In this document: positions 2,107 to 18,858 of the stretch, in pieces
Layout: every line of letters begins with the position of its first letter
Numbering within the stretch: the first letter of the stretch is position 1
Assembly (NCBI GenBank): GCA_040326155.1
Contig: JBEQLE010000060.1
Span: 1 to 27,741, forward strand
Reading direction: 5' to 3'
DNA from: Leptospirales bacterium
Lineage (GTDB): Bacteria > Spirochaetota > Leptospiria > Turneriellales > JAOUFE01
Length of the DNA stretch: 27,741 nucleotides
Position numbers and translations under genes: made by a program
The notes under the pieces: generated by a model
Database searches by the model: none
What the model saw: only the letters and a program-made list of their open reading frames with translations
Told to the model about the DNA's origin: nothing

Positions 2107-2183
2107 CGGTTGCATTCCGAACTACGTACAGAGGGAGTTAAGGCCCTTTACTTTACGGGATGTCTCGGGTCGTCGCCAGCCAT
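2107..2183 (+). repeat. 77-nt dispersed element, copy A (candidate structured ncRNA)
   Basis: Ungapped 59/77 identity to copy B (hand count). Shared blocks CGGTWGCATTCCGAACTA, GGART, CCTTTAC and GTMGYCWGCCAT. Confidence 0.85.
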
Positions 2184-2211
2184 GTATTTTAATTAGAAAC
2201 AAAAGAAAAAC

Positions 2212-2234
2212 AAAAAAAGCCCCCGAAGGGGCTT
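2212..2234 (-). terminator. Intrinsic terminator of the porin gene
   Basis: AAGCCCC-TTCG-GGGGCTT stem followed by a T tract on the minus strand. Confidence 0.85.
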
Positions 2235-2267
2235 GAAAAAGACGAATTTAGAAAAGATTAAATCGTC

Positions 2268-3077
2268 TTAGAAAGACAAGGATGCGCCAATAGTAACGGC
2301 CCCGATTGCCGAAGGACGGTCTGCAAGCGAACCAGTTGGGTCAAGATATTGGGTATCACCATCTGCAAAAATCCGATAAACTAGTAACGGAGTGATGTGA
2401 AAACTCAGGTTGTCACCGACTGAAATTGAAAAGGGAAGGGCCACATCAATGTGTCCCCAGTTTGCATTGGTTGCGGTATTGTAATACCACCAACCAAACG
2501 TCAGGGAGGGCTCTAATGACATACTTCCAAACTCTATGGCATGAGAAATACCGGCAGTTAAGTACTCGTAGCTACCACCAGACCCGTCAGAAGCTGCTAT
2601 ACTAAAAGTAGGGTTTAATAGTACCGGGATAGTATACGTGCCTATTACTTCTCCATAACTGTAATACGACCCCATGGTTGTCGGAAATGCATACAATACA
2701 TATGTAAAACCAAACCCACCCATAGTTGTATCGAACTCATACGTACCGGAAAAGTCAATTTCATCAGCCGCTCTAAGTGCGCCATCTGCATTAGCGCGAG
2801 CCATCAATGCATAAGAAGCCCATATATTAAAGGAGAGTCCTTCTATAGGTGTATTGACTGTAAACGATGGCATAACCACAGGTGCAAAGTTGAAAAACTC
2901 TCTGGCATCACCGGCTGCGTCTTGTTTAACTACTAACGCGTCTGATCCTCTCCAGATATAAGTCGAGGAGAAATCTATTCCTGCTTCTACGCCAGGTGTA
3001 TCTTGTGCGCTTAAAGGGCTTAATACCCCGGCTACTAATGCTATAGCCATTATTTTACCGAACATTTTTTTTATCAT
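2268..3077 (-). CDS. Outer-membrane beta-barrel, TorF/TIGR02001-like putative porin
   Basis: Signal peptide, SSTYIWRG and EIDFSGTY motifs, alternating beta strands, C-terminal Phe. Located next to amtB-glnK. Confidence 0.75.
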   Translation of the reverse strand: MIKKMFGKIMAIALVAGVLSPLSAQDTPGVEAGIDFSSTYIWRGSDALVVKQDAAGDAREFFNFAPVVMPSFTVNTPIEGLSFNIWASYALMARANADGALRAADEIDFSGTYEFDTTMGGFGFTYVLYAFPTTMGSYYSYGEVIGTYTIPVLLNPTFSIAASDGSGGSYEYLTAGISHAIEFGSMSLEPSLTFGWWYYNTATNANWGHIDVALPFSISVGDNLSFHITPLLVYRIFADGDTQYLDPTGSLADRPSAIGAVTIGASLSF

Positions 3078-3132
3078 TTTACTTCCTTATTAAATATTTA
3101 ACAAATCTTGTTTGTTATTATACTAACTATTG

Positions 3133-3148
3133 TGCAATTACTATGCCA
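3133..3148 (-). promoter_or_regulatory. sigma54 promoter of the porin gene
   Basis: Minus strand reads TGGCAT-AGTAA-TTGCA, 55 nt upstream of the start codon. Confidence 0.85.
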
Positions 3149-3197
3149 ACAATCCATACTTTATTTGGTATAATAAATAAACATTTTATACGTGTAC

Positions 3198-3214
3198 AGT
3201 AAAAATCTTATGCA
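3198..3214. promoter_or_regulatory. 17-bp candidate activator box
   Basis: AGTAAAAATCTTATGCA, fitting WGTRWWAATNNTATGCA as at 1837 and 8638. Confidence 0.5.
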
Positions 3215-3303
3215 TTTTCTAAAATTATGCTTGAATTAATTAAATAGATAGTGTACATAGTCAGTAAAGATTATTATAGAAATAGATAAATAGGAGTACA
3301 ACA

Positions 3304-3546
3304 ATGTCATTTTTTGCACAATCAAACAACGAAGAAGTAGAACAAGAAATCGGTGAAGAAGACAAGAGTAGTGAGAGTAAGGAAAATAAAGAAGACGACG
3401 ATGATGTTGTTTTTGAAGAGGTCAACGTAAGTTTTGCTTGCGAAGATTGCGATTACAGATGGGAGTCTGCATTTGAAAGTGATGAAGATGCGGACGAAGT
3501 TCAGTATTGTCCCATGTGTGGCACTGCAAATACAACACAGATCTAA
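3304..3546 (+). CDS. Small acidic zinc-ribbon protein
   Basis: CEDC...CPMC pairs, very acidic, AGGAG RBS. Confidence 0.75.
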   Translation: MSFFAQSNNEEVEQEIGEEDKSSESKENKEDDDDVVFEEVNVSFACEDCDYRWESAFESDEDADEVQYCPMCGTANTTQI

Positions 3547-3552
3547 AGTAAT

Positions 3553-3861
3553 ATGTCTTTACGCATATCAATTCTCTCTCTTGTTCTTCTGGGTTATTTT
3601 ATAATCTTGCTATCTAATACCCAGAGTGTGCAATTTACATTCTTTATGTATGAGTGGAAGATACCTATGTTTCATATTATGTTTATCTCTTCTTTGACAG
3701 GGATACTGTTTTATATGTCCGTAAAGTCGATTGTTTTTAAAAATGACCGATTGGTTAAGAAACTCATAGATCTGGAAGACCAGGTAAATGGTAGCTCCGA
3801 AGCTGTGGATAACCCCACCGCAAAGTCGCCAGCTAATACCGAAGGAGTAACTAATGAGTGA
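3553..3861 (+). CDS. Small membrane protein, LapA/DUF1049-like
   Basis: Two hydrophobic segments around SNTQSVQFTFF, then a short coiled segment. Overlaps the next start codon. Confidence 0.6.
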   Translation: MSLRISILSLVLLGYFIILLSNTQSVQFTFFMYEWKIPMFHIMFISSLTGILFYMSVKSIVFKNDRLVKKLIDLEDQVNGSSEAVDNPTAKSPANTEGVTNE

Positions 3862-4189
3862 TTGTCTTTTTTGTAAAATGGTAGATAAAGAAATTCAACC
3901 TGATATAGTAAAAGAAACCGACGATTGGCTTTGTTTTCGTGATTTGAACCCACAAGCTCCTGTTCATGTATTGCTAATACCTAAGAGCCATTACTCCGAT
4001 ATTGAAGATGTCGATGTGCCGGAAGTGTTCGGGAAACTATTTCAGGGTATTTGTGAAATAGTGCAACATTTAGGCCTCGAAGATGGGTATCGAGTTTTAA
4101 CGAACAAGGGAGTAAATGGGGGCCAAAGTGTTTTCCACCTGCACTTCCATATTCTGGGAAAGCGAAAGCTTGGGTGGCCGCCAGGTTAA
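3854..4189 (+). CDS. hinT: Histidine triad nucleotide-binding protein
   Basis: DCLFC, PQAPVHVLLIPK, GQSVFHLHFH and C-terminal WPPG. Confidence 0.93.
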   Translation: MSDCLFCKMVDKEIQPDIVKETDDWLCFRDLNPQAPVHVLLIPKSHYSDIEDVDVPEVFGKLFQGICEIVQHLGLEDGYRVLTNKGVNGGQSVFHLHFHILGKRKLGWPPG

Positions 4190-4201
4190 AAGGAGAATCA
4201 T

Positions 4202-4840
4202 ATGAGTAATGATTTATTAGATCGGTTCGGTTCCAATTATTCTGAAAATACGGTTATTTTTCGTGAAGGTGACGTTGGAGACTGCATGTATATTATTCAA
4301 GAAGGCGAGGTCTCTATTTCAAAGAAAGGGCAAAACTCGGACTTTGTTCTTGCCGTACTTAAAACCGGAGATTTTTTTGGGGAAATGACTCTTTTTACGA
4401 ACCCTAATAGAGTAGCAACTGCCAAAGTTACGATAGAGTCCGTTTTACTGAAAATTGATAAAAGTTCTTTTGATTACATGGTGCAAAAAAACGTACCTTT
4501 TGCCGTTCGTATGATTGAAAAATTATGTGATCGCCTTAAAAAGGTCGATGATCAACTCAGCGAGCTAATGGGCATAGGCGAGCAAACTCGCATGTTACAA
4601 TTTCTTATGAATTACTGGAAAATAGCTGGAAAAAAAGACGCTACGGGTCAGAATATTTTAATGCAATATCAGGGGTTTATGAATTTTTTAAGCACAGATC
4701 ATCATATCGGGGAAGATGATGGTAAACGAGCTTTATTCGATTTAAAAAGCCGAGGATTGATTCATGTTAAAAAGGATACCCAGGGTATCGTATATCTTAC
4801 GTTATCTCCCCGGGTATTCTCTTATTTTAACATTATTTAA
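4202..4840 (+). CDS. Cyclic-nucleotide-binding (Crp/Fnr-like) protein
   Basis: IFREGD..MYIIQEGEV, GDFFGEM and RVATA cNMP-domain motifs, with a degenerate winged-helix-like tail. Confidence 0.85.
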   Translation: MSNDLLDRFGSNYSENTVIFREGDVGDCMYIIQEGEVSISKKGQNSDFVLAVLKTGDFFGEMTLFTNPNRVATAKVTIESVLLKIDKSSFDYMVQKNVPFAVRMIEKLCDRLKKVDDQLSELMGIGEQTRMLQFLMNYWKIAGKKDATGQNILMQYQGFMNFLSTDHHIGEDDGKRALFDLKSRGLIHVKKDTQGIVYLTLSPRVFSYFNII

Positions 4841-4845
4841 ATGAA

Positions 4846-5064
4846 TTACTCTTTCCAGTGGATACATTCACCAGGACAATCATCGATCATTTCTTGAACT
4901 TCGTCAATATTTGCATCGGCAACAGTCGCTTCTTCTACATCAGAACCTTCCGTATATGCGTAAGCTAAATCATCGTCGTCCATTTTAAATATTTTCGGTA
5001 GTCCATCGGTACACAATGCACAACTGGTGCAATCATCCTTCACTACATATGTAATTTTACTCAT
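4846..5064 (-). CDS. Monocluster 4Fe-4S ferredoxin
   Basis: CTSCALC...CPGECI, acidic, AAAGGAG RBS. Confidence 0.9.
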   Translation of the reverse strand: MSKITYVVKDDCTSCALCTDGLPKIFKMDDDDLAYAYTEGSDVEEATVADANIDEVQEMIDDCPGECIHWKE

Positions 5065-5188
5065 AGATAACTCCTTTCTATACGAGATAGTTTAAAATAA
5101 ACCGCTCGAAACTTAGTCCTAAATAAATTTTCTTGATAATGTGACCATCATATTTTAGATTTTGAGTCGTGGCAAGTGATGGGAAAGC

Positions 5189-5218
5189 AAAAAAAAACCC
5201 CGGCGAACCGGGGTTTTT
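5189..5218 (-). terminator. Intrinsic terminator after the FecR-domain gene
   Basis: CCCCGG-TTCG-CCGGGG followed by 9 T on the minus strand. T5 on the plus strand, so it may be bidirectional. Confidence 0.9.
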
Positions 5219-5239
5219 AGAAAGGAAAACTGTATTAAT

Positions 5240-6253
5240 TTAATACGGTTCTACTTTAGCGACGGTGCTAGATGGAATAATACGTTTACCTTGTGTCGTA
5301 ATAATTTCCATATTACCACTTTTTTGGCTAAACGCTCCAATATAGACTTTACCGCTTTTAGTAATTACTTTGCTTAGTTGGCCATGAGTTCTTCTCAGGT
5401 CATCTAAAGTAATTTGTTTAGTTTCAGCTTTAATTTCTTCAGCTTTTTGCTCTTCAACCTGGATCATGACTTGCTCAATTTCATCAGGAACAATTTCAGG
5501 AATTTCTTCCAGAATTGCTTCTAATTCACTTGGCTTAGCAGTTTCGATCTGTTCGAGGTTATCATCAGCAACAAAAGCGATTTCATCAAGTTTTTCTAAA
5601 GACTCAATTTCAGCAATTTTCATTTCTTCAATTTTTACATCGGCAATAGACTCAGTATCTTCAGAAACTTCAATCTTATTACCGGCTGTTAAAATAATCT
5701 CTTCATCTTGAGTTGCGTCACTGTCTGGAATGGCTTCACTGCCATCAGATTGAGTGTTTACAAGTTTTGGAGCTTTTTTAACGGCCACTTTACCGCGAAA
5801 AAGTTTAATAGAAGCTGTTTTATCGTCTTTTACGTCAACGGAAAACGAAGTTCCACGCACACCCGCCGTAATGGTTGGTGTGTGAATGTTATACTCTGCT
5901 TCACCTGGCATAATTTTGTTGAAAGTAGACCCTCTTTCCTGGGTTAATTCGATATTTGGTTTACCGTCTTTACCCATCAATAGTTTATTAATAGAAAGAG
6001 TAGTGTTCGCTTCTACTGTTACCATGGCGCTGTTAGAAAACTGAATAACAGCAGTGGATTTGTCTTTAACGTTAATAGTATCGTTAGCCTTTACTTGATT
6101 TCCGATAGTCGCCTTAGCGTTATTCACTTCAACGCTTCCTCGAACAAAAGTAATTGTTCCGTGTAGCGATTCAGCGGTAGGTTTTTCTTCTTTGCAATGT
6201 ACCAATATAAGCAATGAAGCTAGTATTGGTAGGAAGAGTTTTAATTTTTTCAT
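5240..6253 (-). CDS. FecR-domain lipoprotein (LipL45-like)
   Basis: MKKLK..LILVHC signal/lipobox-like N-terminus and IHTPTITAGVRGTSF FecR motif. Start at 6253 is supported by GGAGG. Confidence 0.8.
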   Translation of the reverse strand: MKKLKLFLPILASLLILVHCKEEKPTAESLHGTITFVRGSVEVNNAKATIGNQVKANDTINVKDKSTAVIQFSNSAMVTVEANTTLSINKLLMGKDGKPNIELTQERGSTFNKIMPGEAEYNIHTPTITAGVRGTSFSVDVKDDKTASIKLFRGKVAVKKAPKLVNTQSDGSEAIPDSDATQDEEIILTAGNKIEVSEDTESIADVKIEEMKIAEIESLEKLDEIAFVADDNLEQIETAKPSELEAILEEIPEIVPDEIEQVMIQVEEQKAEEIKAETKQITLDDLRRTHGQLSKVITKSGKVYIGAFSQKSGNMEIITTQGKRIIPSSTVAKVEPY

Positions 6254-6500
6254 CTGTGTCCTCCCAAGGATATTACAGGTTATTTCAACTGTATAATAAT
6301 TAAAAGACAATGATGCAACTAAAAAACGTGTTCGAATCGGTCAAAAAGGTAAGAAATATCGATGATTTACTACCAAGGTACGACGAAGGAGTCCTTTCTG
6401 GATTTAGTATGGATGTAATTGTATATAAAGAAGTGATAGCCTAAATTGTTCTGTTTTCTTTTATTTTTTGTAATCAAAAGGCAATAATAATACATATTAT

Positions 6501-8573
6501 TTATTGTAATCCCAACTCTTTAATTTTTTTATCCAGTGTTAATCGGTTCACGCCGAGCATACGGGCAGTTTTACTCTTATTGTAAAACGTATTCTTTAAT
6601 ATATTAACTATTAAAATCTCCTCAACCTGCTGAATTACATTCTTATAGTATTCCCCTTCTTTTCCATTTTGAATGATGTCATCAACCCATTGGTCAATTC
6701 CGGGCTGCTCTACTTCTGTCTCTTTTACGGTTTTTTCAGTTTGTTGTATTCTGGTCTGGGTTTCGGGTATAACAATTTCAGCAGGTTTTATAAGTTTATC
6801 GCTCGATAATACATAGGCTCGTTCTAATATATTTTCAAGTTCCCTGATATTTCCGGGAAATGAGTAATTTTCAAGCCGGGCAAAGCCTGCATCGGATAAA
6901 GTTTTTTGAGGTTTGCCATTTCTTTTTGCAATCTGACGTAAAAGGTGGTCTGAAATAAATGGTAAATCTTCCATACGATCTCGTAAGGGAGGTATTTCAA
7001 TGCGAATTACATTGAGCCGATAATAGAGGTCTTCGCGAAACTTTTTATCACGAATGTTGGTTTCCAGATTGGCGTTTGTTGCTGCTATAATACGCACATC
7101 CACTTTGTATACTTTATTGCTGCCAAGCGGGGAGAACTCTTTATCTTGTAAAAATCGGAGCAACTTGGATTGTAGTTTGTAATCCATTTCGCCTACTTCA
7201 TCTAATAAGAGAGTTCCTTCATGAGCAATTAAGAATTTTCCTTTGTGATCGCGATCGGCGCCCGTAAAAGCGCCTTTATCATAGCCGAAAAGTTCACTTT
7301 CAAGCAAATCGGAAGGAATTGCCGCGCAATTGATTTTTACAAGCTTTTTTGTTTTTCGCATTGAATTTCTGTGTATAGCCGTTGCAAAAAGCTCTTTACC
7401 GGTTCCAGATTCTCCGGTGAGTAAGATGGAGGTGTTGGAATCTGCCGACATTTGCATGACTTGAAATAGATCTTGCATCGATTTGGAGCGTCCGACGATG
7501 TTTTCAAAAGAGTAGTTGCTGTCAAATTGCCGTTTTAATAATATATTTTCTTCTTCAATATCATTTTTACTCTCTTCAATAAAATTTTGAATACTGATTG
7601 CCTGAGAAAAAAGAGTGGATAATATTTGAACCAGAAAAGAGTAATCTTCAAATCGGGCTAAACTGGTATAGGGAATTTCCATATTAAAAACACCGCGTGG
7701 TTCATCATTGACCAGAATGGGTGAGGAGAAAAAACTCATTTTCTTTTTGGGGCGCTCTGCACCCGATTTATTTAAAAAAGTCTTATCCTGGTCGATATCT
7801 TGAAGGTAGACAGGTTCACTTTTTGAAAAAACAGTTCCGGTAATACCTTCGTTGGGGCGGTAATTACTTTTCTCTTTTTCTTCTTCTGTGTAGTTCAGTG
7901 AGTTTACGATGCCCAGTCTTCCGCTGACGGGTTCGGTAATAAATACGGCGGCCCTTTCGAGTCCGATTGTTTTTTGCAGATGCAAAATAATCTCCTGGAA
8001 TACCTTGGAAAAGACAGGATATTTTCCAAGGTATCCTGAAATTTCAATTAGAATGTTCTGGATATTGGTTCTATGGTTGAGGTGACGAATAGTTTCTTGT
8101 TTCGTTAGAATTTGAGCAGCGTAACTGGCCAACAGACTTAAGTACTCTTCGTGTGTATCGTTAAATGCATTTTTGCGCGAGGAATCAACAGAGATAACTC
8201 CGAAACTTTTGGAACCTGCTTTCAAAGGAACCGCTAGCTCTGATTGTATATCTGATCGAACAGAAACATAATAAGGATCTTCAGATGTATTACCGACATT
8301 TCGTGTTTTTCCGGTTAAAATACACCTTCCCGTAACCCCTTCACCCAACTTCAGTTTTACTTTTTCAGGTACGTCGGTAGACAAACCGCGAAAAGCCTTA
8401 ATGTCCAGGTATTTACGTGTGTCGTCCAAAAGGGCAATGCTGCCCGAATCGGCTTTGGTAAATTCAATGGTTTGGTCGAGTATGGTATCGAGTAAATTAT
8501 CAGGGTTATCTTCGTTTAATAAGCCAAGTGTAATTTCATGAAGATTTAGCAAAGGGTTAGAATAAGTCTGCAT
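6501..8573 (-). CDS. sigma54-dependent enhancer-binding protein, GAF-GAF-AAA+-Fis HTH
   Basis: GESGTGKE, ESELFG..GAFTGA, LLDEVGE, FREDLYYRLNV, FPGNIRELEN and a C-terminal HTH, with two N-terminal GAF-like domains. Start moved to 8573 because ATG 8603 lies inside a sigma54 promoter. Confidence 0.95.
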   Translation of the reverse strand: MQTYSNPLLNLHEITLGLLNEDNPDNLLDTILDQTIEFTKADSGSIALLDDTRKYLDIKAFRGLSTDVPEKVKLKLGEGVTGRCILTGKTRNVGNTSEDPYYVSVRSDIQSELAVPLKAGSKSFGVISVDSSRKNAFNDTHEEYLSLLASYAAQILTKQETIRHLNHRTNIQNILIEISGYLGKYPVFSKVFQEIILHLQKTIGLERAAVFITEPVSGRLGIVNSLNYTEEEKEKSNYRPNEGITGTVFSKSEPVYLQDIDQDKTFLNKSGAERPKKKMSFFSSPILVNDEPRGVFNMEIPYTSLARFEDYSFLVQILSTLFSQAISIQNFIEESKNDIEEENILLKRQFDSNYSFENIVGRSKSMQDLFQVMQMSADSNTSILLTGESGTGKELFATAIHRNSMRKTKKLVKINCAAIPSDLLESELFGYDKGAFTGADRDHKGKFLIAHEGTLLLDEVGEMDYKLQSKLLRFLQDKEFSPLGSNKVYKVDVRIIAATNANLETNIRDKKFREDLYYRLNVIRIEIPPLRDRMEDLPFISDHLLRQIAKRNGKPQKTLSDAGFARLENYSFPGNIRELENILERAYVLSSDKLIKPAEIVIPETQTRIQQTEKTVKETEVEQPGIDQWVDDIIQNGKEGEYYKNVIQQVEEILIVNILKNTFYNKSKTARMLGVNRLTLDKKIKELGLQ

Positions 8574-8594
8574 ATTGTTTAGAATATAAACAAC

Positions 8595-8610
8595 TGCAAG
8601 CATTTTGCCA
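8595..8610 (-). promoter_or_regulatory. sigma54 promoter of the activator gene itself
   Basis: Minus strand reads TGGCAA-AATGC-TTGCA (GG-N10-GC intact). Confidence 0.75.
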
Positions 8611-8637
8611 ATAAATGAGAGTAAGAAACTGTTTTAT

Positions 8638-8654
8638 TGTATAAATAGTATGCA
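8638..8654. promoter_or_regulatory. 17-bp near-palindromic candidate activator box
   Basis: TGTATA-AATAG-TATGCA, one mismatch from the palindrome TGCATA-N5-TATGCA. Confidence 0.6.
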
Positions 8655-8741
8655 TGAGGTTCGCATAATTGAGGAAAAGAAGGTTTATTACCTTATTCTA
8701 TATTCATCTTGACTGCTCATAATTGAAAGTTTCCTTATCTA

Positions 8742-10028
8742 ATGGATTCAGTGGAATCGCTGATTAAGGAGTGGCAAGAGCAATACTCTGATCTGCCTTT
8801 TGAAGCTTTTATAAAGCAAGATGTGTTGCGTTGTGGGTTGGGGTTTCAGAAAGAGGCGATTGATCCGCAGGTTGCCGGTCAATATAAAACCAAAGATTAT
8901 TTTATTTTCTCTTTTGACCTTGTTCCGCTAAACTCCATGAAAGAAGGGGAGAACTGGAAAGCCCCGGAAGAGATTCGTCTGTCGGGTGGTCCGCAATCTG
9001 TGCAACAAACCGTAGTTTCGGTACGTATTCATCCAGAGTCACCATACCAGGTTTCCGTTTTGGAAGGGGTCATGAGGCTGCTTTATAAGAACGAATATCT
9101 TTGCGATGTAGAATATCCGCCTATCCCAGAATATTATAAGAAAAAATACTCAATGGACAAACCCATTGGAGAAATTGCCCCTGTAATTGAGTGGGGGTAT
9201 CTAATTTATTTGACAGTGTTTCGTAATTGCCAGTATTTTGGCAAAGACGAAGAGTGTCAGTTTTGTGACATTAACCACAATTGGAAACAACAGAAAAAAT
9301 CGGGTCGTCCTTATACGGGTATAAAGCCCATTGAGTATGTGCTCGAAGCTCTAAGCGGTATAAATGAGTTTGATACGGTTGCTAAAGCCTATACACTTAC
9401 CGGTGGTTCGGTGGTCACGAACTTGCAGGGCAAAGACGAAACTGAATTTTACGGTCAATATGCAAAAGCGATTCAAGAGAAATTCCCCGGCAGGTGGATT
9501 TCCAAAGTCGTTACCCAGGCTTTTGAACTTGATAACGTAAAAAAACTGAAAGATTACGGCGTTGATATTTATCATCCAAATTACGAGGTCTGGGATTCTA
9601 AACTGTTCGATATTTATTGCCCTGGTAAGGCGCGTTACGTTGGCAGAGACGAATGGATGAAACGGATTATCGATGCAACTTCTGTTTTTGGCGCTCGAAA
9701 TGTAATACCGAATTTTGTGGGTGGAGTCGAGATGGCCGGTCCGCATGGTATTAAAGACGTCGACAAAGCGGTTGAAAGTACAAGCGAAGGGTTGGAATAT
9801 TTTATGTCAAATGGCGTTACGCCCCGTTTTACGACGTGGTGCCCGGAACCTTATACTGTTCTCGGAAACGAAAAAGCTCCACCTTTGGAGTATTATATGA
9901 AATTACTTCGCAATTATAAACGACTTATGGAAAAGTATAAACTGCCGGCGCCTCCGGGGTATGGGCCTGCCGGGGTGGGTAAGGCTGTCTTTAGTGTTTC
10001 GGCTTTTATGGATGTGCTAAGAGAGTAA
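8742..10028 (+). CDS. Radical SAM protein with non-canonical CX8CX2C motif
   Basis: CQYFGKDEECQFC, TLTGG, and a BioB-like NYEVWD..CPGK segment. Confidence 0.8.
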   Translation: MDSVESLIKEWQEQYSDLPFEAFIKQDVLRCGLGFQKEAIDPQVAGQYKTKDYFIFSFDLVPLNSMKEGENWKAPEEIRLSGGPQSVQQTVVSVRIHPESPYQVSVLEGVMRLLYKNEYLCDVEYPPIPEYYKKKYSMDKPIGEIAPVIEWGYLIYLTVFRNCQYFGKDEECQFCDINHNWKQQKKSGRPYTGIKPIEYVLEALSGINEFDTVAKAYTLTGGSVVTNLQGKDETEFYGQYAKAIQEKFPGRWISKVVTQAFELDNVKKLKDYGVDIYHPNYEVWDSKLFDIYCPGKARYVGRDEWMKRIIDATSVFGARNVIPNFVGGVEMAGPHGIKDVDKAVESTSEGLEYFMSNGVTPRFTTWCPEPYTVLGNEKAPPLEYYMKLLRNYKRLMEKYKLPAPPGYGPAGVGKAVFSVSAFMDVLRE

Positions 10029-10059
10029 AGCGAGTAAAGAGTGACATTGTCAGTGAATT

Positions 10060-10133
10060 TAGCGACGCAGGGATTCGAACCCCGGACACGCGGATTATGA
10101 TTCCACTGCTCTAACCTACTGAGCTACGTCGCC
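10060..10133 (-). tRNA. tRNA-Met (CAT), probably elongator
   Basis: Cloverleaf GGCGACG..AGCTCAG..CAT..GGTTCGAATCC..CGTCGCTA with paired 1:72. CCA not encoded. Ile2 not strictly excluded. Confidence 0.92.
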
Positions 10134-10140
10134 AACTAAT

Positions 10141-10213
<73 letters not shown>

Positions 10214-10311
10214 ATATGTTTACCCACAATGTGAATTTGAGATATCTTGTCAAACGATAAACAATGTGTAGGTCGGAATCAGCAATTTTCGGTTTTTCTC
10301 CACCTAGTTGC

Positions 10312-11019: not shown

Positions 11020-12996
11020 CTAAATTACTCTCTCGTTGCCACCGTCAACGGCAACACCATCACCGGTTGTTTTGGCAAACGTGTCTGAACACATTTCGGC
11101 TGCCATGTTGGCAACGTCTCGACTAAAGACACCGATTTTCAGTACGTTGTTGGTTTTGTACTCTTCGACGGTTAAACCGTAACTTTTGGCGCGAGCGGCG
11201 AGAACCTCTTCGGTCCAGATGCCGGTGTCAAAAACCGCGTTGGGATGAATCGAGTTTATACGTATTCCATGTTCTCCCCATTCGAGAGCGGCAATTCGAG
11301 CCAGTTGGTTTAACGCAGCTTTCGAAGCAGAGTAGGCCGATGCACCTGGCCCGGGAGCTTTCACATTTTTAGAACCAATAATAACCACCCGACCGCTTTT
11401 AGGTGCATTTTTCAGATGAGGAAATGTTTTAGAAAGAAGCCTGACGTTGGAATCCAGGTTAATATCCATAACTTTTTTCCATGTCTCTAAATTCATATCT
11501 TCAATTTTCGACGACTTCGGAAAAATACCTGCATTTAAAACAATCATGTCGATTCCACCAAATTTCAGCAGAGAGTTCGATATGGCAGTATCAATGGAAT
11601 TTTCATCTGTAATGTCACAGACAAAACCGGCATAATCGGCGCGATCAAACATCGTTTCAATCTCTGTGTTAATGTCGAGTCCGACAACACAGGCCCCATC
11701 GGCTAGAAACTTTTCTACGCAGGCGCGTCCAATACCCGAAGCGGCCCCCGTAACCAAAACAACCTCACCCTGAAAACGAGCAGCTTTACCACCTTTACGT
11801 AGTTTGGCTTGTTCGAGATCCCAGTACTCCATTTGAAATAGATCTTTCGCTTCCAGAGCCCGGTAACCTCCCAGCTTTTCACTGCGCAAAATAATTTCTA
11901 TGGTGTGGTTATAAATATCTTTAATAATATTAGCATCTTTCGCGCTTTTACCGGCAGCCAAAAGACCAAAATCTTTATCGAGTATCACACGCGGGGCAGG
12001 GTCCAGCATAGTCAACTCGTCCGTAGAGTTTTTCTCGTAAGTCTCAAAGTATTTTGCATACTCACCAGCGTAGTTACCCACAGAGTCAAATAGAGCCGGC
12101 AGGCGTTTTGTGCGAATAATATGATCAGGTGTAGCAGGCCCCTGTTGTGAAATAGTTGCCAGATCTTTGTTAGCCGCAAAAGTTCGGGTTTTATCCGTTG
12201 TTTCGGCGCTTATAATAAGGGGAAAACCAGCGCTATCGCTAATCGATTTTCTTAAGGCAGACAACGAAGCAATTTTCTCGTCTGGCACCGTCGCAGCTTT
12301 TTCACTCCATTCGAGACTCCAGGACGATTTTGACTCGATAAATTTTTCAGAACGTTCAATAAGGTCGATCATTCGATCGTAAGACTCTTTCGCATTATCG
12401 CCAAAACTGAACATCCCATGGTTCATTAAAGCCATACCAATCGTATTCTCGTTTTTCTGTTTGGCAAACTCAACACCGCATAAGCGGGCAAGGTCAAAAC
12501 CGGGCATCACATAAGGAATATAAATAACACTATCGCCATAAATTTCTTTAATAAAGTCAAAACCATTTGGAGTATTTGTCACCGTAACAAGAGCGTCGGC
12601 GTGAGTATGGTCCACATATTTAAACGGTATAATGGCATGCAAAATAGTCTCCACCGAAGGTGACGGGGAGGAGTAGTTCGTCATGCTGGTTTTTAGTTCA
12701 TTCACCATCTGGGGGTCCGAAAGTTTCTCCAGCGCAGAGAGTTTCACCATATCGTTTAGCTTCACGGGACTAAAACCGGGCTCTTCAATGGTTGCTAAAT
12801 CCCATCCACTGCCTTTTATGTATAATATCTCTTCGTCTTCGCCAAGAATATTTTTCTCGGTAATCTTAACAGAGGTGTTTCCCCCGCCATGCAAAACAAG
12901 CGAAGGGTTGCGTCCGAGCAGTCGGCTGGTATAGACGCGCAGGGCCAGATCAGTTTTATATTCAGAAGCTTCTTTATCATTCCAGAGGTTATTCAT
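11020..12996 (-). CDS. Bifunctional class II aldolase / short-chain dehydrogenase (RhaD-SDR fusion, YuxG/RhaEW-like)
   Basis: HGGGNTSVK, KGSGWDL, PSVETILH, DHTH, TPDH and EYWDLEQAKL, then SDR motifs TGAASGIG, NAG and YSASK. Family-typical start MNNLW at 12996. Confidence 0.92.
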   Translation of the reverse strand: MNNLWNDKEASEYKTDLALRVYTSRLLGRNPSLVLHGGGNTSVKITEKNILGEDEEILYIKGSGWDLATIEEPGFSPVKLNDMVKLSALEKLSDPQMVNELKTSMTNYSSPSPSVETILHAIIPFKYVDHTHADALVTVTNTPNGFDFIKEIYGDSVIYIPYVMPGFDLARLCGVEFAKQKNENTIGMALMNHGMFSFGDNAKESYDRMIDLIERSEKFIESKSSWSLEWSEKAATVPDEKIASLSALRKSISDSAGFPLIISAETTDKTRTFAANKDLATISQQGPATPDHIIRTKRLPALFDSVGNYAGEYAKYFETYEKNSTDELTMLDPAPRVILDKDFGLLAAGKSAKDANIIKDIYNHTIEIILRSEKLGGYRALEAKDLFQMEYWDLEQAKLRKGGKAARFQGEVVLVTGAASGIGRACVEKFLADGACVVGLDINTEIETMFDRADYAGFVCDITDENSIDTAISNSLLKFGGIDMIVLNAGIFPKSSKIEDMNLETWKKVMDINLDSNVRLLSKTFPHLKNAPKSGRVVIIGSKNVKAPGPGASAYSASKAALNQLARIAALEWGEHGIRINSIHPNAVFDTGIWTEEVLAARAKSYGLTVEEYKTNNVLKIGVFSRDVANMAAEMCSDTFAKTTGDGVAVDGGNERVI

Positions 12997-13064
12997 GAGG
13001 GTACATTCGTCTTCAAAGAGGGGGGGTAAAGGATTTTTGCATCTCCATTTCGGCAGGAAAGAAG

Positions 13065-13141
13065 ATGGCAGGCTACCAGCCCGGTTTTCTCGGGTTGTAA
13101 AGGTATAATATTCCAATTAATAATAGTTCGGAATGCTACCG
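13065..13141 (-). repeat. 77-nt dispersed element, copy C
   Basis: Ungapped 52/77 identity to copy B (hand count). Similarity to B continues through roughly 13142-13190. Confidence 0.8.
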
Positions 13142-13179
13142 AAGTAGAGACTTGTATTTACTTTTTAGTTATAGTAGAG

Positions 13180-13367
13180 AAGGAAAAGGAAAAGATGGGA
13201 GGACAGGATTTACAGGATTAACCGGTTTTAAAGTAAGAGATTATATTTACATTCACCAGGCAAATAAAACTCAATAGTGGCTCGAAACGCAATGAAGTTC
13301 TTTCCTCTCTTTCTTTTCCTGCCATTCCTGTCCTCCTTCCTGCTTTCCTTACAATTCTTACTCTTGC
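13180..13367. repeat. CAGGA-repeat inverted-repeat element
   Basis: Perfect IR GGAGGACAGGA (13198-13208) / TCCTGTCCTCC (13326-13336) within longer purine and pyrimidine arms. Shares AAGGAAAGCAGGAAG, ACAGGAATGGCA and GCAAGAGTAAGAA with 10821-10857 in inverted orientation. Confidence 0.8.
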
Positions 13368-13431
13368 GTTATTCGATAACGGAAAAGAGTCGACATCGTA
13401 ATTCGTGAAAACAAATGTAAACGCACGAATT

Positions 13432-14052
13432 ATGAATAAATTAAAGAATTGGCAATTTCTGGTTGTCGAGGGGATTGACGGCAGTGGCAAATCGACTATT
13501 GCTAAAAAGATTTTCGATGAACTGAAAGGGGCTGCGGCACTGTTTTGTGAACCGACTGAAAACAGTCCTCACCGAACTCGAATTCGGGCTATTTTGGCGG
13601 GGGACGAAGGGGAAGTCGATGATGAAAAAAACTCAGTTTTGCGTCGGCTTTTTCTCGAAGATCGAGTCTGGAATATAAAAAATAACCTGGAACCCGCAAT
13701 TCAAAGGAGTAAAAAAGTAATCCTCGACCGGTATTTTTTTTCAACGGCTGCTTACCAGGGTAAAGACGAAACCGAGGCCAGGGGAATTGCCGCTGAATAT
13801 CTGACGCTTCCCGAAATTCTAATGCCCGATGTGGTTCTTTATATTGACATTGCTGAAGAGACAGCGCTCGATCGTTTGAATGCGCGAGCAGGTCATACTG
13901 AAGTATTTGAAAAACTAGAATTCTTGAAAAAAGTCCATAAAAATTACAACAGCTTGTTTACTTCCACCGATTATGAATTCCCCATCCGGAAAATTGACGG
14001 AGCGAAAACGCCCGAAGAGGTATGGCTGGAAGTTTCGAATATTATATTTTAA
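13432..14052 (+). CDS. tmk: Thymidylate kinase
   Basis: VEGIDGSGKST, EP, LFLEDR, LDRYFFST.AYQG and PD motifs. Alternative GTG start at 13405. Confidence 0.93.
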   Translation: MNKLKNWQFLVVEGIDGSGKSTIAKKIFDELKGAAALFCEPTENSPHRTRIRAILAGDEGEVDDEKNSVLRRLFLEDRVWNIKNNLEPAIQRSKKVILDRYFFSTAAYQGKDETEARGIAAEYLTLPEILMPDVVLYIDIAEETALDRLNARAGHTEVFEKLEFLKKVHKNYNSLFTSTDYEFPIRKIDGAKTPEEVWLEVSNIIF

Positions 14053-14193
14053 TGTGGTAATTTATATGACGTTCTTTCATTCCTCGACCCGCTATGCGAA
14101 CGCACAGTTAAACTCCATAATTTGGGCGAGGTCGATAGCGGAAGCGAAAGGGTAGAGTAGCTTATTAAAAAATTCAAAGCTGTCAACAAGGTG

Positions 14194-14223
14194 TTTACCG
14201 GGATGTTCGAAAATCCCGGTAAA
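14194..14223. terminator. Hairpin between convergent genes (probable terminator)
   Basis: TTTACCGGGAT-N8-ATCCCGGTAAA, a perfect 11-bp stem. Confidence 0.7.
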
Positions 14224-14279
14224 TTATATTCGAATTGTTAAAGTCAGTTCTATTCAATTCTCATTATCAAAGAGAATTT

Positions 14280-17200
14280 TTACTGGATATCTCTCACACA
14301 ACGCACTTTTGTGTCAGCAACGCCCAGCATTCTGCTATGAATGTCACCAACAACGACTGAATTACTAACACCGTCATACGAGAACCAATATTTCAAAGAA
14401 TTAGGGGGCAGTGGCGGTGACGGTGGGTTATTATACCATGATGGTTTGTTTCTGGAGTGACCCCCGGTAAGGCGGTGGTCGTCTTTATCGAAATCCGGAC
14501 TTACACCCCATATCCGATTATACCCTAGAATACCGGAAATTATATGGTCAGTAATTAATGGCTCTGTGCTTGATTCTTGAAAATTCAATAAATGACCATA
14601 GTCAACGTAACCCCACCGATACCAGCCCCAGCAAAAAGAATATTTTGAACCGCAGCCACGCGCTTTGTGCCATCGTATACCGACGGCAACAGTTCTCTTA
14701 TCTAAGCTACCATAATCATACCAATAATCCCCTAAAGGATCTGAAAAGAATGGTTCGGCACTGTCTTGTGGTTGTACAGTTTCGAATTCCGGTTTCGTTG
14801 GCAAACGCCAGTCAATAAATCCGGACAAGCTGAGATTAGCGCAATCGTTTTTGGTGTCGGTTAAGTTAGAATAAGCCCTCGGAGTTCCAGCACAGTCCGG
14901 GTCGTACATATGTTGACCCAGGTTACATTTAGTCCACATCAGTGAACTTGCATCATCGACCAGCATACCGGCATATGGATCTTGACATATTCTATTCACC
15001 AGGTTAAGGTGAACTTGATCAGTTGAGTCCACAGTTATATTGTAAACATAACAGTTGAGTACTACCTGATCATTTCCCGAGGCAGACTGTATAACCTCTA
15101 CCCGATACAAACCTTCCGGTTTTGGCGGAGTTACACCGGGCACCGTTGGTATTGGCGGGTCAAATTCTGCTGAGGGTAGAGACATTGTATCTCTTGTTAC
15201 AGTATTCGGTCCGGTCAACGTATTGCTAAGCAACCAGTCCAGCTGGAATTTACCGTCTGCCAACAATTGAACCTGTAAAATTTCAGGAGTAGCATCTCCT
15301 TTTATGTTAATAGGGAATAAACCTACCGTTGTCGCAAACTCATTAATCACCTGCGCGGCATAATTTTTCTTTGGTAGCGGATAACCGTTCACACCCACAT
15401 AAAACTGGTCATTCACGATATTGTTTGCAAAATATTTTTTGGATTGTGAAACCGGGTCAATAAGGCAGTAACCGCCAAGAGTCACCCTGGCATTCAGATG
15501 TATATTTAACATTGGTGAATCGTCTAATGGCATTGTATCGCCATTGTCCAATACCATCTCAAATTGCGTGGCTGAACCCGGTGGAGCTATTCTAACTGTT
15601 CCGGTAATTTTAGGTTTACATTTTTGACTGGATGATTTACGCCAGTTTTTTGTCCATATCCACTCGGAGCCGCCAGCAGGGTTATCATAATCTATTTTCA
15701 ACCCGCTTAAATCAATTCCAAACACTAACATCCCGTTTATTTCTGAGATTGTATTTATTCTAAACATTGATTTTTGAACGTTCGCATAGCTCATTGGATT
15801 CGATAGAATAAGTGAATAGCCATATAGAGTAGGCCGTTCTAACATGTCGGCATTGACATCATTAAACAATGTTGTTGCCGCATCGTGAACATTTTGAAGG
15901 GAGAATTGAGGAATAATTTTTACTGCGTTCACCCTTAATTCGTTGCCCCCCATGTTAACGGACACCCGATAGTAAATATCGAGAGAACCCGTTTCAACAT
16001 TCAAAGGTATACCAAAACTCGCCAGGTGAGATTGTGCGGATAATCGCATTCGGAATAAATAGTTTCCTAAATATTTAATCTCAGGAACAGATGCCGGTTC
16101 TATAGTCAGAACAGTGTTCGTATCGGCGTTCACTTCATAATTATAGCAAAAATAACCCCGCTTAGACAGTTCCAAAAAGACTTGATTCATTGCGGTTAAC
16201 GAAAAACCCATGCCAAGATCAGAATCTGACGGTAAGGGGAAGTTTTGTATCGGTGAATCGGGAATAGTTCCCAGATCTACATTGCAGTTGCCTGCGGCAA
16301 TTTGAGGCGCAGGAATGTAAGCGTTAATATCTGCTGAGTATTCTATGCCTAGAGAATCAAGCTTAACATTGGCTTCGACCCGGGTGTCGGCAAGCGATGT
16401 GTTGATGGCTTTTTCAATTTCTTTGCTTAAACTGTCTTCCTCTCCATCACCAATTGCCTCGGCAATTTGCTCACTTATTTTGATCTCTTTATTTATCTCT
16501 TTTTTTATTAAAGCATGAATCTGTTCTTTAAAAATATAAAATATCGGACTAAGAATACCAAGCATATCGACATTAAAATGCGTATGGTCTACACTTACAT
16601 TAAAGTTCCCGGCTTGCTGGTCCACATACTCTATAGACATTACCCCGGTTTTAGCGTCTCTTTTTACTTTATAATTCAATGTTAAGTCAAAATCCCTTAT
16701 ATTAATATCAGCAGAATCTTGAGCCCATATTACAGTAGTTTCACAGATAATACGTGCAGCTAAAGCAAGAGTGTAACAAACAGGCTGGAATAGTGGAAAC
16801 CATTTCGCACAATCATCATTTATTGATTCATGCATTAAAATACACAAACCAGCGGATCCTAATATTCCTTTCACCACCTTTAAATCAACATGTCCGGCGG
16901 TGAAATCTGTCAACCGGGCTCTCACACTTAGAATGTCAGGTGTGTCGGGTGAACCGGCTACTGTAAATTTAAATTTGCGAGAATCAATTTCATATAACTT
17001 TAGATCACCGCTGGCCGTAAAACCGATGCCTTTCATGTCAATGCTACCTTTTTGTGCCGGTATTATTACAGGGTTAACAGCGTGAGCTTTTTCGACAATG
17101 TAATTCAGTGCGCTGTATTGAATCTTCGCGGCGACTGCGTTTGGATAAGAAAGTGTAAATCCACTTTCACCGCTTACAGTAATAATCGTAAAGTGATTCG

Positions 17201-18584
17201 TATGGACGGTTACAGTATTCGCGCCCTCATCTATATCAACGGAAGGAATATAAACCCACTGCTCTCTATCTTTATGATAATACCTGGCTCGTATATTTTC
17301 GGCAGTAAAACCTTTCGCTGCCAGTAAATTCGGGTCGTACTTTAATGTTAAGCTTATGGCTTTTTTAAAAACCATATCGGGCTTCATCTCATACGCGCCC
17401 AGTAATACGCTATTTTCTCCAGACAGAGGCTTTGGTAGATTCGCTTCAACGATAGGGTTGGCTTCTATACGAACCGGTTTATCAAATGCGTTTTCATCAG
17501 CGTTTACAATTAAATTGCCGTTGTCTAAATTCAAGTTAACGGGTTTATCCGGTTCATTATACTCATCACCACTGATTCTGTTAATCGCGAAAACAGGATC
17601 GAAGTAGAACTGACCGTTTCTATCGAGAATAGATTTGTTTAAGTTCGGTCGAAGAGCAAAGTCCATGACTTTGGATTGTACAATTGGAAGTTCTTGAACT
17701 ATGATTCTTGATTTTGAGTCACCGGACTGAAAAAGAAGAGGAATGGAAACAAGATCGCCGTAAGCTGTTGCTCCTGAATTCATTTGTTGTACAGTTTCTA
17801 ATGTTACACCTGTTGGCGGTTTAAATAGAATTTTTCCTGTGTCGCCAAAGTTTATTCGAATAGCGTCGTAAAGAGCCGGTTCTAATGCGTATATGCCTAT
17901 AATACGGTTTAAATCTAACACTCCTAAATCAACCTCAGTTTCTTGTGTGGTTATTTTTATCCATCCATTTTGAGGGTGCCGCGCTTCTACAGATTTAATG
18001 TTTACAAGAACTTGTACGTCGCCCCTGGGGCCATATTTTTCTTTAAACGCTTGAATTTTATTATAAATTTCCTGGATATCTTCTATTAATTCATCATGAT
18101 CATCGTCCCCAGATTCTTCGCGATATTCGTTTGCAAATTGTTTTATTTCTATATGTAACTCGCGAATATCGTGCCATGTTCTAAAAGTATCAGCATCATG
18201 GTGATTGCTTACTGTACTAATTTTATTGACATGATCGACCTTATCCTCTTCTTTACCTGATTTTAACGAACGCTCCAGTTCGTGCATGGGTTTATTCATG
18301 GCATCGTAAATACAAGATAATTTAACAGCCCCTTCTACAGTTGAGCAAGCAGCTTCAGCGTCGCAGAGCACTTGTATGTATTCATTCTCTGTGGGGTTAC
18401 ATGCCGCATTTCCATCTTCTGTGAACAGCGGTCCTTGTAGTCGCACGCTTAGAACTCCGTTGTCGGGGTATTCTTCCAGTAACATTTGTTCCGTAATGCT
18501 TTCAATTGTAGTTTCATCTTCGCCACCACAGTTGTATGCAATCAGTATGCTAAAAACCAAAATAAGACAAGTTCGTAATTTCAT
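14280..18584 (-). CDS. 1434-aa multidomain lipoprotein: DUF4382-like, HFT-motif beta domain, BPI/LBP-like region, C-terminal DUF1566 (Lcl)
   Basis: Lipobox-like LIAYNC, TVHTNHFT at about aa 464, and LMWTKC..C..L..GFIDWRLPT..E..VRCVR (DUF1566). AGGAG RBS. The internal domain calls are by eye. Confidence 0.75.
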   Translation of the reverse strand: MKLRTCLILVFSILIAYNCGGEDETTIESITEQMLLEEYPDNGVLSVRLQGPLFTEDGNAACNPTENEYIQVLCDAEAACSTVEGAVKLSCIYDAMNKPMHELERSLKSGKEEDKVDHVNKISTVSNHHDADTFRTWHDIRELHIEIKQFANEYREESGDDDHDELIEDIQEIYNKIQAFKEKYGPRGDVQVLVNIKSVEARHPQNGWIKITTQETEVDLGVLDLNRIIGIYALEPALYDAIRINFGDTGKILFKPPTGVTLETVQQMNSGATAYGDLVSIPLLFQSGDSKSRIIVQELPIVQSKVMDFALRPNLNKSILDRNGQFYFDPVFAINRISGDEYNEPDKPVNLNLDNGNLIVNADENAFDKPVRIEANPIVEANLPKPLSGENSVLLGAYEMKPDMVFKKAISLTLKYDPNLLAAKGFTAENIRARYYHKDREQWVYIPSVDIDEGANTVTVHTNHFTIITVSGESGFTLSYPNAVAAKIQYSALNYIVEKAHAVNPVIIPAQKGSIDMKGIGFTASGDLKLYEIDSRKFKFTVAGSPDTPDILSVRARLTDFTAGHVDLKVVKGILGSAGLCILMHESINDDCAKWFPLFQPVCYTLALAARIICETTVIWAQDSADINIRDFDLTLNYKVKRDAKTGVMSIEYVDQQAGNFNVSVDHTHFNVDMLGILSPIFYIFKEQIHALIKKEINKEIKISEQIAEAIGDGEEDSLSKEIEKAINTSLADTRVEANVKLDSLGIEYSADINAYIPAPQIAAGNCNVDLGTIPDSPIQNFPLPSDSDLGMGFSLTAMNQVFLELSKRGYFCYNYEVNADTNTVLTIEPASVPEIKYLGNYLFRMRLSAQSHLASFGIPLNVETGSLDIYYRVSVNMGGNELRVNAVKIIPQFSLQNVHDAATTLFNDVNADMLERPTLYGYSLILSNPMSYANVQKSMFRINTISEINGMLVFGIDLSGLKIDYDNPAGGSEWIWTKNWRKSSSQKCKPKITGTVRIAPPGSATQFEMVLDNGDTMPLDDSPMLNIHLNARVTLGGYCLIDPVSQSKKYFANNIVNDQFYVGVNGYPLPKKNYAAQVINEFATTVGLFPINIKGDATPEILQVQLLADGKFQLDWLLSNTLTGPNTVTRDTMSLPSAEFDPPIPTVPGVTPPKPEGLYRVEVIQSASGNDQVVLNCYVYNITVDSTDQVHLNLVNRICQDPYAGMLVDDASSLMWTKCNLGQHMYDPDCAGTPRAYSNLTDTKNDCANLSLSGFIDWRLPTKPEFETVQPQDSAEPFFSDPLGDYWYDYGSLDKRTVAVGIRWHKARGCGSKYSFCWGWYRWGYVDYGHLLNFQESSTEPLITDHIISGILGYNRIWGVSPDFDKDDHRLTGGHSRNKPSWYNNPPSPPLPPNSLKYWFSYDGVSNSVVVGDIHSRMLGVADTKVRCVRDIQ

Positions 18585-18600
18585 ATATTTCTCCTAACGG

Positions 18601-18629
18601 ACAATATAATATTGTCTTCATTTTGTCAA
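18601..18629 (-). promoter_or_regulatory. sigma70-type promoter of the large lipoprotein gene
   Basis: TTGACA-N17-TATTGT. The palindrome ACAATA-TAA-TATTGT (18601-18615) overlaps the -10 element. Confidence 0.6.
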
Positions 18630-18781
18630 TGAATATATAATTTTTGTAAGGTTATGTGCAATACTTTGCAGGGATCGAGGTCAGTTGTCGGAACAATGCC
18701 ACTACCTTCCTCATTTTCTTATAAAACTTTTCTCTTTCTTCTTTAGTAAGTAAAACTTAAAAGGAAAACAAGTCTGTATTA

Positions 18782-18858
18782 CGGTAGCATTCCGAACTAC
18801 GTACAAATGGAGTTAAATTCCTTTACGACAGGGGAGTCGCCGGGACGTCGTCTGCCAT
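18782..18858 (+). repeat. 77-nt dispersed element, copy B
   Basis: Aligns without gaps to copies A and C. Overlaps the last 11 codons and the stop of trmB. Confidence 0.85.

Follow-up and report, generated by a model that had tools for sequence, protein, structure and literature searches.

The contig JBEQLE010000060.1 of a Leptospirales bacterium (assembly GCA_040326155.1), whose full 27,741 nt form the window analysed here, carries three copies (A, B and C) of a 77-nt element and raises an obvious question: is this element a structured RNA, a mobile DNA or something else? The window corresponds to contig C128 of an assembly of 4,257,931 bases in 171 contigs (G000; 39.6% G+C). The initial annotation located the copies from the letters alone, and each 77-nt sequence was matched letter for letter at its coordinates and on its strand, the three aligning with one another without gaps. 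The analysis revealed that they belong to a real, genus-restricted, multicopy family, of which this genome has 84 members and a sister species no fewer than 32, in which the first bases of the core pair with the last, and which is polar with respect to its neighbouring genes. Our tentative reading, somewhat short of an even chance, is that the copies are small self-terminating RNA modules of about the size of a tRNA, which would be transcribed.

To assess the size of the family, a degenerate pattern of two conserved blocks was scanned on G000, with the reversed pattern as a control. The pattern matched 52 times (29 forward, 23 reverse) and the control not at all. A search with nhmmer returned 90 matches at E ≤ 0.01, 78 of which were strong and full-length at the 5′ end, while a covariance model (R1) built from 36 ungapped 77-nt copies gave 84 matches at E ≤ 0.01 with scores of 30–93 bits and, in the window, found exactly copies A, B and C. 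The large genome-wide family that had been anticipated from three copies thus exists. Its members are dispersed over at least 60 contigs; the few that lie within 5 kb of each other do so in mixed orientations.

Outside G000, neither the strict two-block pattern nor R1 detected a copy in 40 relatives (three of the same family, the others of the same order or class), and R1 relaxed to E ≤ 5 on the three same-family genomes gave nothing above 19 bits. When one genome per species was scanned, the two-block pattern produced 67 single matches in unrelated organisms; after rescoring with R1, eight of these reached E ≤ 1 and none exceeded 24.8 bits. Among the 101 stretches reported from metagenomes, 80 were available as loci for rescoring, and here R1 confirmed at least 32 copies (32 of 80 loci, 28–82 bits). 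All but one of the confirmed loci share a single contig-name prefix (31/32; L185 has another), and their flanks are 70–95% identical to G000, which indicates that they come from a related but different, sister species.

Another important question is whether base pairing has been under selection in these copies. Structure statistics were collected over 52 copies of exactly 77 nt from the two species (36 from G000 and 16 from the sister species). The outermost helix, P1 (positions 2–6 with 71–75), is paired in 99.2% of cases, and in 100% among the 36 G000 copies. The compensatory swap noticed at pair 5:72 in the window holds across the family, with C-G in 21 copies, A-U in 20, U-A in 10 and one copy unpaired; the corresponding counts are A-U 15, C-G 13 and U-A 8 in G000, and C-G 8, A-U 5, U-A 2 and one mismatch in the sister species. 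P1 therefore pairs. The U4-G73 wobble is present in 48 of 52 copies and U9-G31 in 23 of 52; since both become A-C mismatches on the other strand, it is the strand proposed as the RNA that folds. An optional extra hairpin occurs in 7/70 copies at one fixed site, immediately before the invariant block at 37–45, with differing stem sequences, and in three orthologous pairs the sister species has it where G000 has none. Together with the covariation in P1 and the U-G pairs at 4:73 and 9:31, this fixed-site hairpin with varying stems bears out the proposal that selection acts on the base pairing of this strand. Small palindromes resembling ACGCGATTCATCGCG also occur at no fewer than 10 dispersed G000 sites (e.g. 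C22:48375, C66:53835 and C85:45361), and some of the optional hairpins resemble them, so part of the hairpin signal may reflect nested insertion.

The inner helices are less regular. P2 as first proposed (16–21:64–69) pairs in 58.8% of cells, whereas the shifted register 18–22:66–70 pairs in 70.6% over the 36 G000 copies and in 68.1% over all 52, with changes on both sides in 4–5 of its 5 pairs (all five in the 52-copy set). A helix of this kind is thus moderately supported, but in the shifted register (68–71% vs 59%). The crossing helix 8–14:26–32, on which the proposed pseudoknot depends, is 72–77% paired and remains plausible; its variation, however, is nearly all one-sided, from U-A to U-G, two-sided change being seen at pair 14:26 alone (C-G 22, A-U 5). 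Over the 52 copies, the three-helix model pairs 78.7% of cells, compared with 27.5–50.8% when partners are slid, and none of 500 shuffles reaches the covariation score or the number of cells with two-sided changes, a result that related sequences can also produce without structure. Flank-core and flank-flank combinations showed no base-pair-like covariation. Two further candidate helices were rejected: one at 48–51:60–63 is only 48.6% paired, and a 5′ hairpin that would compete with P1 (−6 to +3 with 11–19) has an extension that is 33–76% paired, lacks covariation and does not vary in strength with context.

A member of the family is an intergenic module of approximately 120–130 bp comprising a 31-nt 5′ flank, the folded core and a U-rich tail. 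The core is 75–78 nt long in most copies. Its invariant or nearly invariant positions are C1 G2 G3 U4, G6, A8 U9 and C11 C12 G13, followed by a block at 37–45 (U-A-C-C-U-U-U/A-A-C), and its conserved blocks include CAUUCCG and UACCUUUAC; the latter stretch is invariant and, in the predicted fold, unpaired. After P1, positions +4 to +11 are each most often T (58/70 copies at +4, 55/70 at +7). The 5′ flank is semi-conserved to about −31, an extent that comparison of orthologous loci confirms, with two boxes, an A-rich stretch, C at −13 in 58/78 copies and S-T-A-K-T-K at −6 to −1. The TTGATT-N18-TATAAT hexamers reported upstream of copy A are indeed present, but they are not a feature of the family, whose upstream profile contains no promoter of this type at the corresponding distance. 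The components found in the window are as follows.

2048–2077, forward strand: sigma-70-like hexamers TTGATT-N18-TATAAT before copy A, 10/12 matches, in copy A only.
2107–2183, forward strand: copy A core, 77 nt, R1 score 74.1 bits; P1 is formed by G2–G6 with C71–C75 and includes U5-A72.
2184–2198, forward strand: copy A tail, weakly U-rich, judged from the sequence and the family tail profile.
13049–13064, reverse strand: copy C tail, pyrimidine-rich, judged from the sequence.
13065–13141, reverse strand: copy C core, 77 nt, R1 score 77.6 bits.
13142–13172, reverse strand: copy C 5′ flank, 31 nt, with C at −13 and GTCTCTACTT.
18751–18781, forward strand: copy B 5′ flank, 31 nt, with an AAACTTA box, C at −13 and GTCTGTATTA.
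18782–18858, forward strand: copy B core, 77 nt, R1 score 77.5 bits.
18859–18880, forward strand: copy B tail, U-rich, judged from the sequence and the family tail profile.

None of 78 copies lies inside an open reading frame (ORF) of at least 100 aa. The spacers are divergent in 26 cases, convergent in 11, co-directional with the element in sense in 12 and co-directional with the element antisense in 21, and the features of the element are the same in all these contexts. The nearest gene on the 3′ side is co-directional in 29/57 cases, at a median distance of ~90 nt, and convergent in the other 28. To compare the two sides, NCBIfam matches at E ≤ 1e-10 were counted with the same library and threshold on both: 34/57 nearest 3′-side genes have a match versus 11/56 nearest 5′-side genes (Fisher p = 2e-5), and for ORFs of at least 150 aa, in a hand tally of the listings, the counts are 32/43 versus 8/32 (Fisher p = 3e-5). 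The 3′ side includes efp, smpB, prfC, tig, rlmN, argH, argG, proA, murJ, pta and fba; the 5′ neighbours include, by Pfam, HicB, MazF, PIN, an Xre-type antitoxin, SLATT, TerB, a type I methylase fragment and a phage sheath protein. Copies are thus polar: their 3′ neighbours belong mostly to well-known conserved families, and their 5′ neighbours are for the most part either unknown or toxin-antitoxin genes. Pairs of copies whose 5′ ends face inward enclose Doc/Fic with a small ORF (antitoxin), HigB/HigA and other small genes. The window follows the trend only partly, the 5′-side neighbours being amtB for copy A and tmk for copy C. No bias towards defence genes was found with PADLOC (5′ side 4/56, 3′ side 7/57).

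How old are the copies? Eight sister-species copies occupy loci at which G000 also has a copy, including those upstream of efp and rpsF, and the flanks of such orthologous sites are only 70–85% identical between the two species. Between species the conserved blocks are retained while the variable blocks drift, so that conserved blocks are, judging from these comparisons, under purifying selection in old, vertically inherited copies. Moreover, most copies within the family are highly diverged in their variable blocks and yet keep the invariant ones; taken with the eight orthologous sites, this argues for selection on resident copies rather than for recent bursts. At another locus a 331-aa ORF occupies the place of the element in G000.

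The reading of the copies as small self-terminating RNA modules fits these data best: first bases pair with last, a U tract follows, the 5′ flank is conserved, gene context makes no difference and resident copies are under selection. In such a molecule P1 would join the first bases of the core to the last, a hairpin would form at 8–14:26–32, and the loop of this hairpin would pair with the strand just 5′ of the 3′ side of P1 (18–22:66–70). P1, the pairing stacked on it and the U tract that follows could then act as an intrinsic terminator, while the invariant single-stranded blocks would serve as the surface to which a protein or another RNA binds.

Several observations weigh against this reading. 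Strong covariation is confined to one pair, the other helices being 68–72% paired. Thermodynamic stability is not above that of shuffled controls: for 10 copies per strand compared with dinucleotide shuffles, the minimum free energy has a mean z of ~−0.75 on the proposed strand and ~0 on the opposite one. P1 encloses a 64-nt interior, unlike a textbook terminator hairpin; although the U tract is present, the helix before it combines the 5-bp P1 with the stacked 5-bp pairing instead of forming a simple hairpin, and a consensus scan does not call it a terminator. Nor is there a recognisable shared promoter. A CTTYA box near −28 occurs in only 28/70 copies, and an ECF (extracytoplasmic function)/sigma-E-like promoter was rejected, as none of 121 two-box matches in the genome adjoins a copy. 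For 20/28 convergent 3′ neighbours, the tail of the element falls between 35 nt inside and 44 nt beyond the stop codon of the gene, a placement that suits a gene-end element as well as an independent gene; copy B is an example of overlap with a convergent gene, its last 36 nt being the opposite-strand end of a TrmB-like ORF at 18823–19635(−). Copy C ends 17 nt before the first ATG (13048) of a co-directional aldolase/SDR ORF, which leaves scant space for a separate promoter after it. Finally, we know of no genome with 84 paralogous small RNAs. Since transcription, its start site, termination and the binding partner are all things that we infer, and since no promoter type fits, the RNA-module reading is held at the tentative level given at the outset.

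A few other ways of explaining the copies were tried and rejected. A Bacteroidota-type promoter on the opposite strand has no counterpart in the family upstream profile. A small peptide on the opposite strand is suggested by an ATG with an in-frame TAA in copies A, B and C, yet the majority of the family ends in GCCTG and lacks a start codon. Guide-like complementarity of the variable blocks to the genome itself is not apparent, as only three loci share at least 16 nt; variable block 2 does have an excess of 14-mer matches (46 observed against a shuffled mean of 12), which longer matches do not support and which may be due to composition or remnant copies.

The remaining explanations are not mutually exclusive and may overlap with the RNA-module reading and with one another. 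The main rival, to which we give a serious but clearly minor share of the probability, is that the family is non-autonomous, (formerly) mobile DNA resembling repetitive extragenic palindromic sequences (REPs) or miniature transposable elements with inverted repeats (MITEs). Its fold would be a single-stranded DNA recognition structure for a transposase acting in trans, and past spread would have been followed by decay or domestication. REPs are regarded as selfish and functional at once; MITEs such as Correia/NEMIS and ERIC are multicopy intergenic units of ~100–150 bp that may carry promoter- or terminator-like signals and fold as RNA. The multicopy, intergenic, one-lineage distribution of the element argues for this explanation, as do signs of gain and loss. 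The 3′ flanks of 14 other sister-species copies correspond to G000 loci at which R1 has no match; one further such locus, on contig C113, keeps the 3′ third of the element as a 5′-truncated remnant. The G000 copy at rpsF has lost 7 nt of a conserved block. Clean empty sites were sought by aligning six loci between the species, and the alignments were uninformative because intergenic DNA is too diverged. G000 also contains recent duplicates of ~115–205 bp at different loci, two pairs of which start near −28 to −31, and one copy is interrupted at approximately position 22 by a Mu/TnsB-like transposon (C121:1483–3271, L286). Single-stranded DNA hairpins, moreover, tolerate G-T wobbles as well, and the S-T-A-K tetranucleotide at −6 to −3 is GTAG-like (G41/C29, T51, A58 and G38/T24 in 78 copies), 2 nt from the stem and not invariant, lying just 5′ of the stem as in the GTAG-tagged REPs described in PMC3733652.

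Other defining marks of such elements are nevertheless lacking. No terminal inverted repeat beyond the 5-bp P1 and no target-site duplication was found at five element pairs, and the boundaries of five recent duplicate pairs are ragged, from −3 to −75 on the 5′ side and from +79 to +134 on the 3′ side. In a six-frame search of the genome, which is 94.66% complete, PF01797 had no match, so that no Y1 or REP-associated tyrosine transposase (RAYT) was detected, and neither was TnpB; no copy adjoins a transposase as its end, and no insertion sequence (IS) shares its ends. Two reverse-transcriptase matches and three IS110 transposases exist in the genome, none of them linked to a copy. The suggested search for a copy associated with a nuclease, transposase or reverse transcriptase gene therefore came back negative for RAYT, TnpB, IS110 and reverse transcriptase. 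The invariant blocks kept in diverged copies and the eight orthologous sites likewise count against this explanation.

GTAG-tagged REPs are characterised, in the part of PMC3733652 that introduces them, as simple 20–40-bp palindromes with an unpaired GTAG tetranucleotide at one end. Like these REPs and bacterial interspersed mosaic elements (BIMEs), as far as that part describes them, our element is high-copy, intergenic and species-restricted, folds on one strand, has a GTAG-like though variable tetranucleotide just 5′ of its stem, lies near gene ends and is plausibly transcribed (PMC3733652). Unlike the REPs portrayed there, however, it is not a palindrome but a core of 75–77 nt, typically 77, with a 5-bp closing helix and a conserved, structured 64-nt interior; it is common in divergent spacers (26/70), forms few inverted dimers, and has no RAYT gene that could be found. 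With the Correia/NEMIS and ERIC MITEs it shares unit size, multiplicity, intergenic position and the potential to carry such signals and to fold as RNA; in contrast to MITEs, it shows no terminal inverted repeat, target-site duplication or parent insertion sequence in these searches, and its copies are old and kept at orthologous sites.

A second possibility, which we consider unlikely, is a cis-acting gene-boundary element without a promoter of its own, that is, a one-way terminator or insulator, or a 3′-end stabiliser, that would guard the conserved 3′ gene from transcription arriving from the 5′ side. The U tract after P1 and the NCBIfam polarity agree with such a role, as do the HicB, MazF, PIN, Xre antitoxin, SLATT and phage sheath genes on the 5′ side and the inward-facing pairs around the Doc/Fic-antitoxin and HigB/HigA modules. 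In addition, efp apparently retains a sigma-70-like promoter of its own between the element and the start codon, in an alignment judged by eye. A terminator, however, has no need of a conserved 5′ flank or of a 64-nt interior that is conserved. Most of the nearest 5′-side genes are beyond its reach as a terminator, since just 21/56 are directed towards the element, and in co-directional spacers it is more often antisense to both genes (21) than in sense (12). The unremarkable stability of the folds and the absence of a PADLOC defence bias also count against an insulator.

Less probable again, and in our view a long shot, is a folded site of the attC or att type, used for recombination or attachment, at whose 5′ edge accessory DNA would be inserted or exchanged. 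At orthologous loci interspecies homology continues on the 3′ side but ends on the 5′ side, 31–36 nt before the core at three loci and 12 nt before it at a fourth; at tig, the 5′ flank of the sister copy maps to another G000 contig, and G000 has an Xre-type antitoxin gene there. Two direct copies that are 95% identical (match −31 to +99) bracket a 27-kb contractile-tail cluster (C83, ~94,500–121,730; loci L293 and L294), and the polarity towards poorly conserved genes would also be explained. Rapid non-coding divergence alone could nevertheless account for the lost 5′ homology, since the 5′ spacers are long. No integron integrase exceeds the cut-off (best TIGR02249 scores 102.7 and 86.5 bits, in two pieces of one ORF, against 265, with the middle of the profile missing), the copies are dispersed and form no cassette arrays, and all four tyrosine recombinase genes of the genome lie away from them, the one inspected sitting in a conserved topA neighbourhood. 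Like integron attC sites, the element is a strand-specific folded site beside variable, often toxin-antitoxin, genes, and its structure is in part more conserved than its sequence; unlike them, it comes with no IntI, no cassette array and no attC core-site motifs as these are generally defined, and it has invariant blocks of primary sequence. As for the 27-kb cluster itself, it encodes a contractile-tail sheath, a gp25-like sheath initiator, baseplate J and two tail-fibre-like proteins with Peptidase_S74/G2 domains, and no integrase was found inside it.

The compact, possibly pseudoknotted fold with invariant unpaired blocks, and the P1-competing 5′ hairpin possible in some copies, might suggest a leader that senses a ligand, a ribozyme that cleaves itself or some other catalytic RNA, but this is very improbable. 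Of the nearest downstream genes, only 29/57 run in the direction of the element, and they have unrelated functions (efp, smpB, prfC, tig, argG, proA, pta, fba and others), which goes against a leader and against the riboswitch-like role raised in the initial annotation; in addition, the competing hairpin shows no covariation, and no Rfam ribozyme or riboswitch matches.

Is the family, then, one that has been described before? The Rfam check proposed with the first description of the copies was run with Rfam 15: two tRNA-Met genes are the only matches in the window that reach a gathering score, and at E ≤ 5–10 no match overlaps copy A, B or C, in agreement with the absence of a known family surmised by eye. 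A tRNA-like nature was not indicated either, ARAGORN and Rfam finding only the tRNA genes at 10059–10214 in the window, and nothing describing this element was found in open-access papers and bioRxiv. The closest known counterparts are the TD-1 and TD-2 RNA motifs of Treponema denticola, with 28 and 36 copies (PMC1950547). The section of that paper devoted to them reports covariation, modular stems of variable length, a fair number of pair-breaking changes, varied and poorly characterised neighbours and an unknown function (PMC1950547). As portrayed in that section, they resemble our element in being spirochaete motifs of a single species or lineage with tens of copies, covariation, modular stems, pair-breaking changes and a broad range of poorly characterised neighbours (PMC1950547). 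In contrast to TD-1 and TD-2 so described, the element is present in 84 copies, is followed by a U-rich tail, has a 5′ flank that is conserved and is polar towards conserved genes, and there is no match in sequence or structure (Rfam 15, E ≤ 5–10). The 77-base family is thus new, yet of a familiar general kind, the lineage-specific multicopy structured repeats, among which we place it because it differs from REPs, MITEs and attC sites in their defining properties and matches no Rfam model.

What follows from this depends on the reading. If the copies are transcribed and functional, they form an unusually large family of small structured RNAs for one bacterium, and the invariant unpaired blocks imply an unknown partner. 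In that case, too, their orientation from poorly conserved or toxin-antitoxin DNA towards housekeeping genes offers a testable handle on the shielding of core genes or on the insertion sites of foreign DNA. A bolder version, which we regard as speculative and rather unlikely, would have ~84 independently transcribed, tRNA-sized RNAs with an invariant, possibly pseudoknotted core that binds one partner, be it protein or RNA, and with variable arms, marking, and perhaps creating or insulating, the junctions between conserved genes and accessory DNA; were this true, multicopy bacterial RNAs would gain a new class whose role is to organise the genome or to regulate. If the family is merely a decaying REP- or MITE-like repeat, it still provides a lineage marker for an uncultured group and a caution for RNA-motif screens.

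Some further features were recorded around the copies. In the window, a canonical intrinsic terminator (7-bp stem, GAAG loop and T run) at 2217–2234(−) follows an unknown 269-aa ORF at 2268–3077(−) and lies 34 nt past the 3′ end of copy A. The stretch separating copy C from tmk contains, at 13198–13336, a 20-nt inverted repeat that is 85% complementary, with arms 99 nt apart and weak hairpin-type Rfam matches on both strands. Elsewhere in the genome, one ORF next to a copy matches the model of the flagellar coiling protein FcpA below the curated cut-off. The Mu/TnsB-like transposon on contig C121 encodes a 533-aa protein with rve and Mu C-terminal domains and has an end with repeated TTCCGGAAACA-like motifs; just upstream there is a gene for a TraG/TrwB-like coupling protein. 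A multicopy family of 237-aa ORFs without a Pfam match occurs at C96:4762–5475(−) (L279:1763–2476), where it adjoins a Pycsar-effector-like gene, and in at least 10 other places, and DNA of this family lies within 300 nt 5′ of four sister-species copies and one G000 copy (C171).

Short repeats also accompany some copies. A pyrimidine-rich repeat resembling TTCCTGCCTTCCTTA recurs just past the tail of several copies that end in GCCAT, for instance on C125 from ~15700 downward and on C106 from ~38335, and weakly at 13049–13064 in the window. Directly 5′ of other copies (C154 ~17065–17210, C81 ~13480–13540 and sister-species locus L227 ~230–300) there are repeat units with GTTCAAG..TTG.G.CAC.GCC and CCGCTAGG, which suggests that these copies are part of mosaic repeat clusters.

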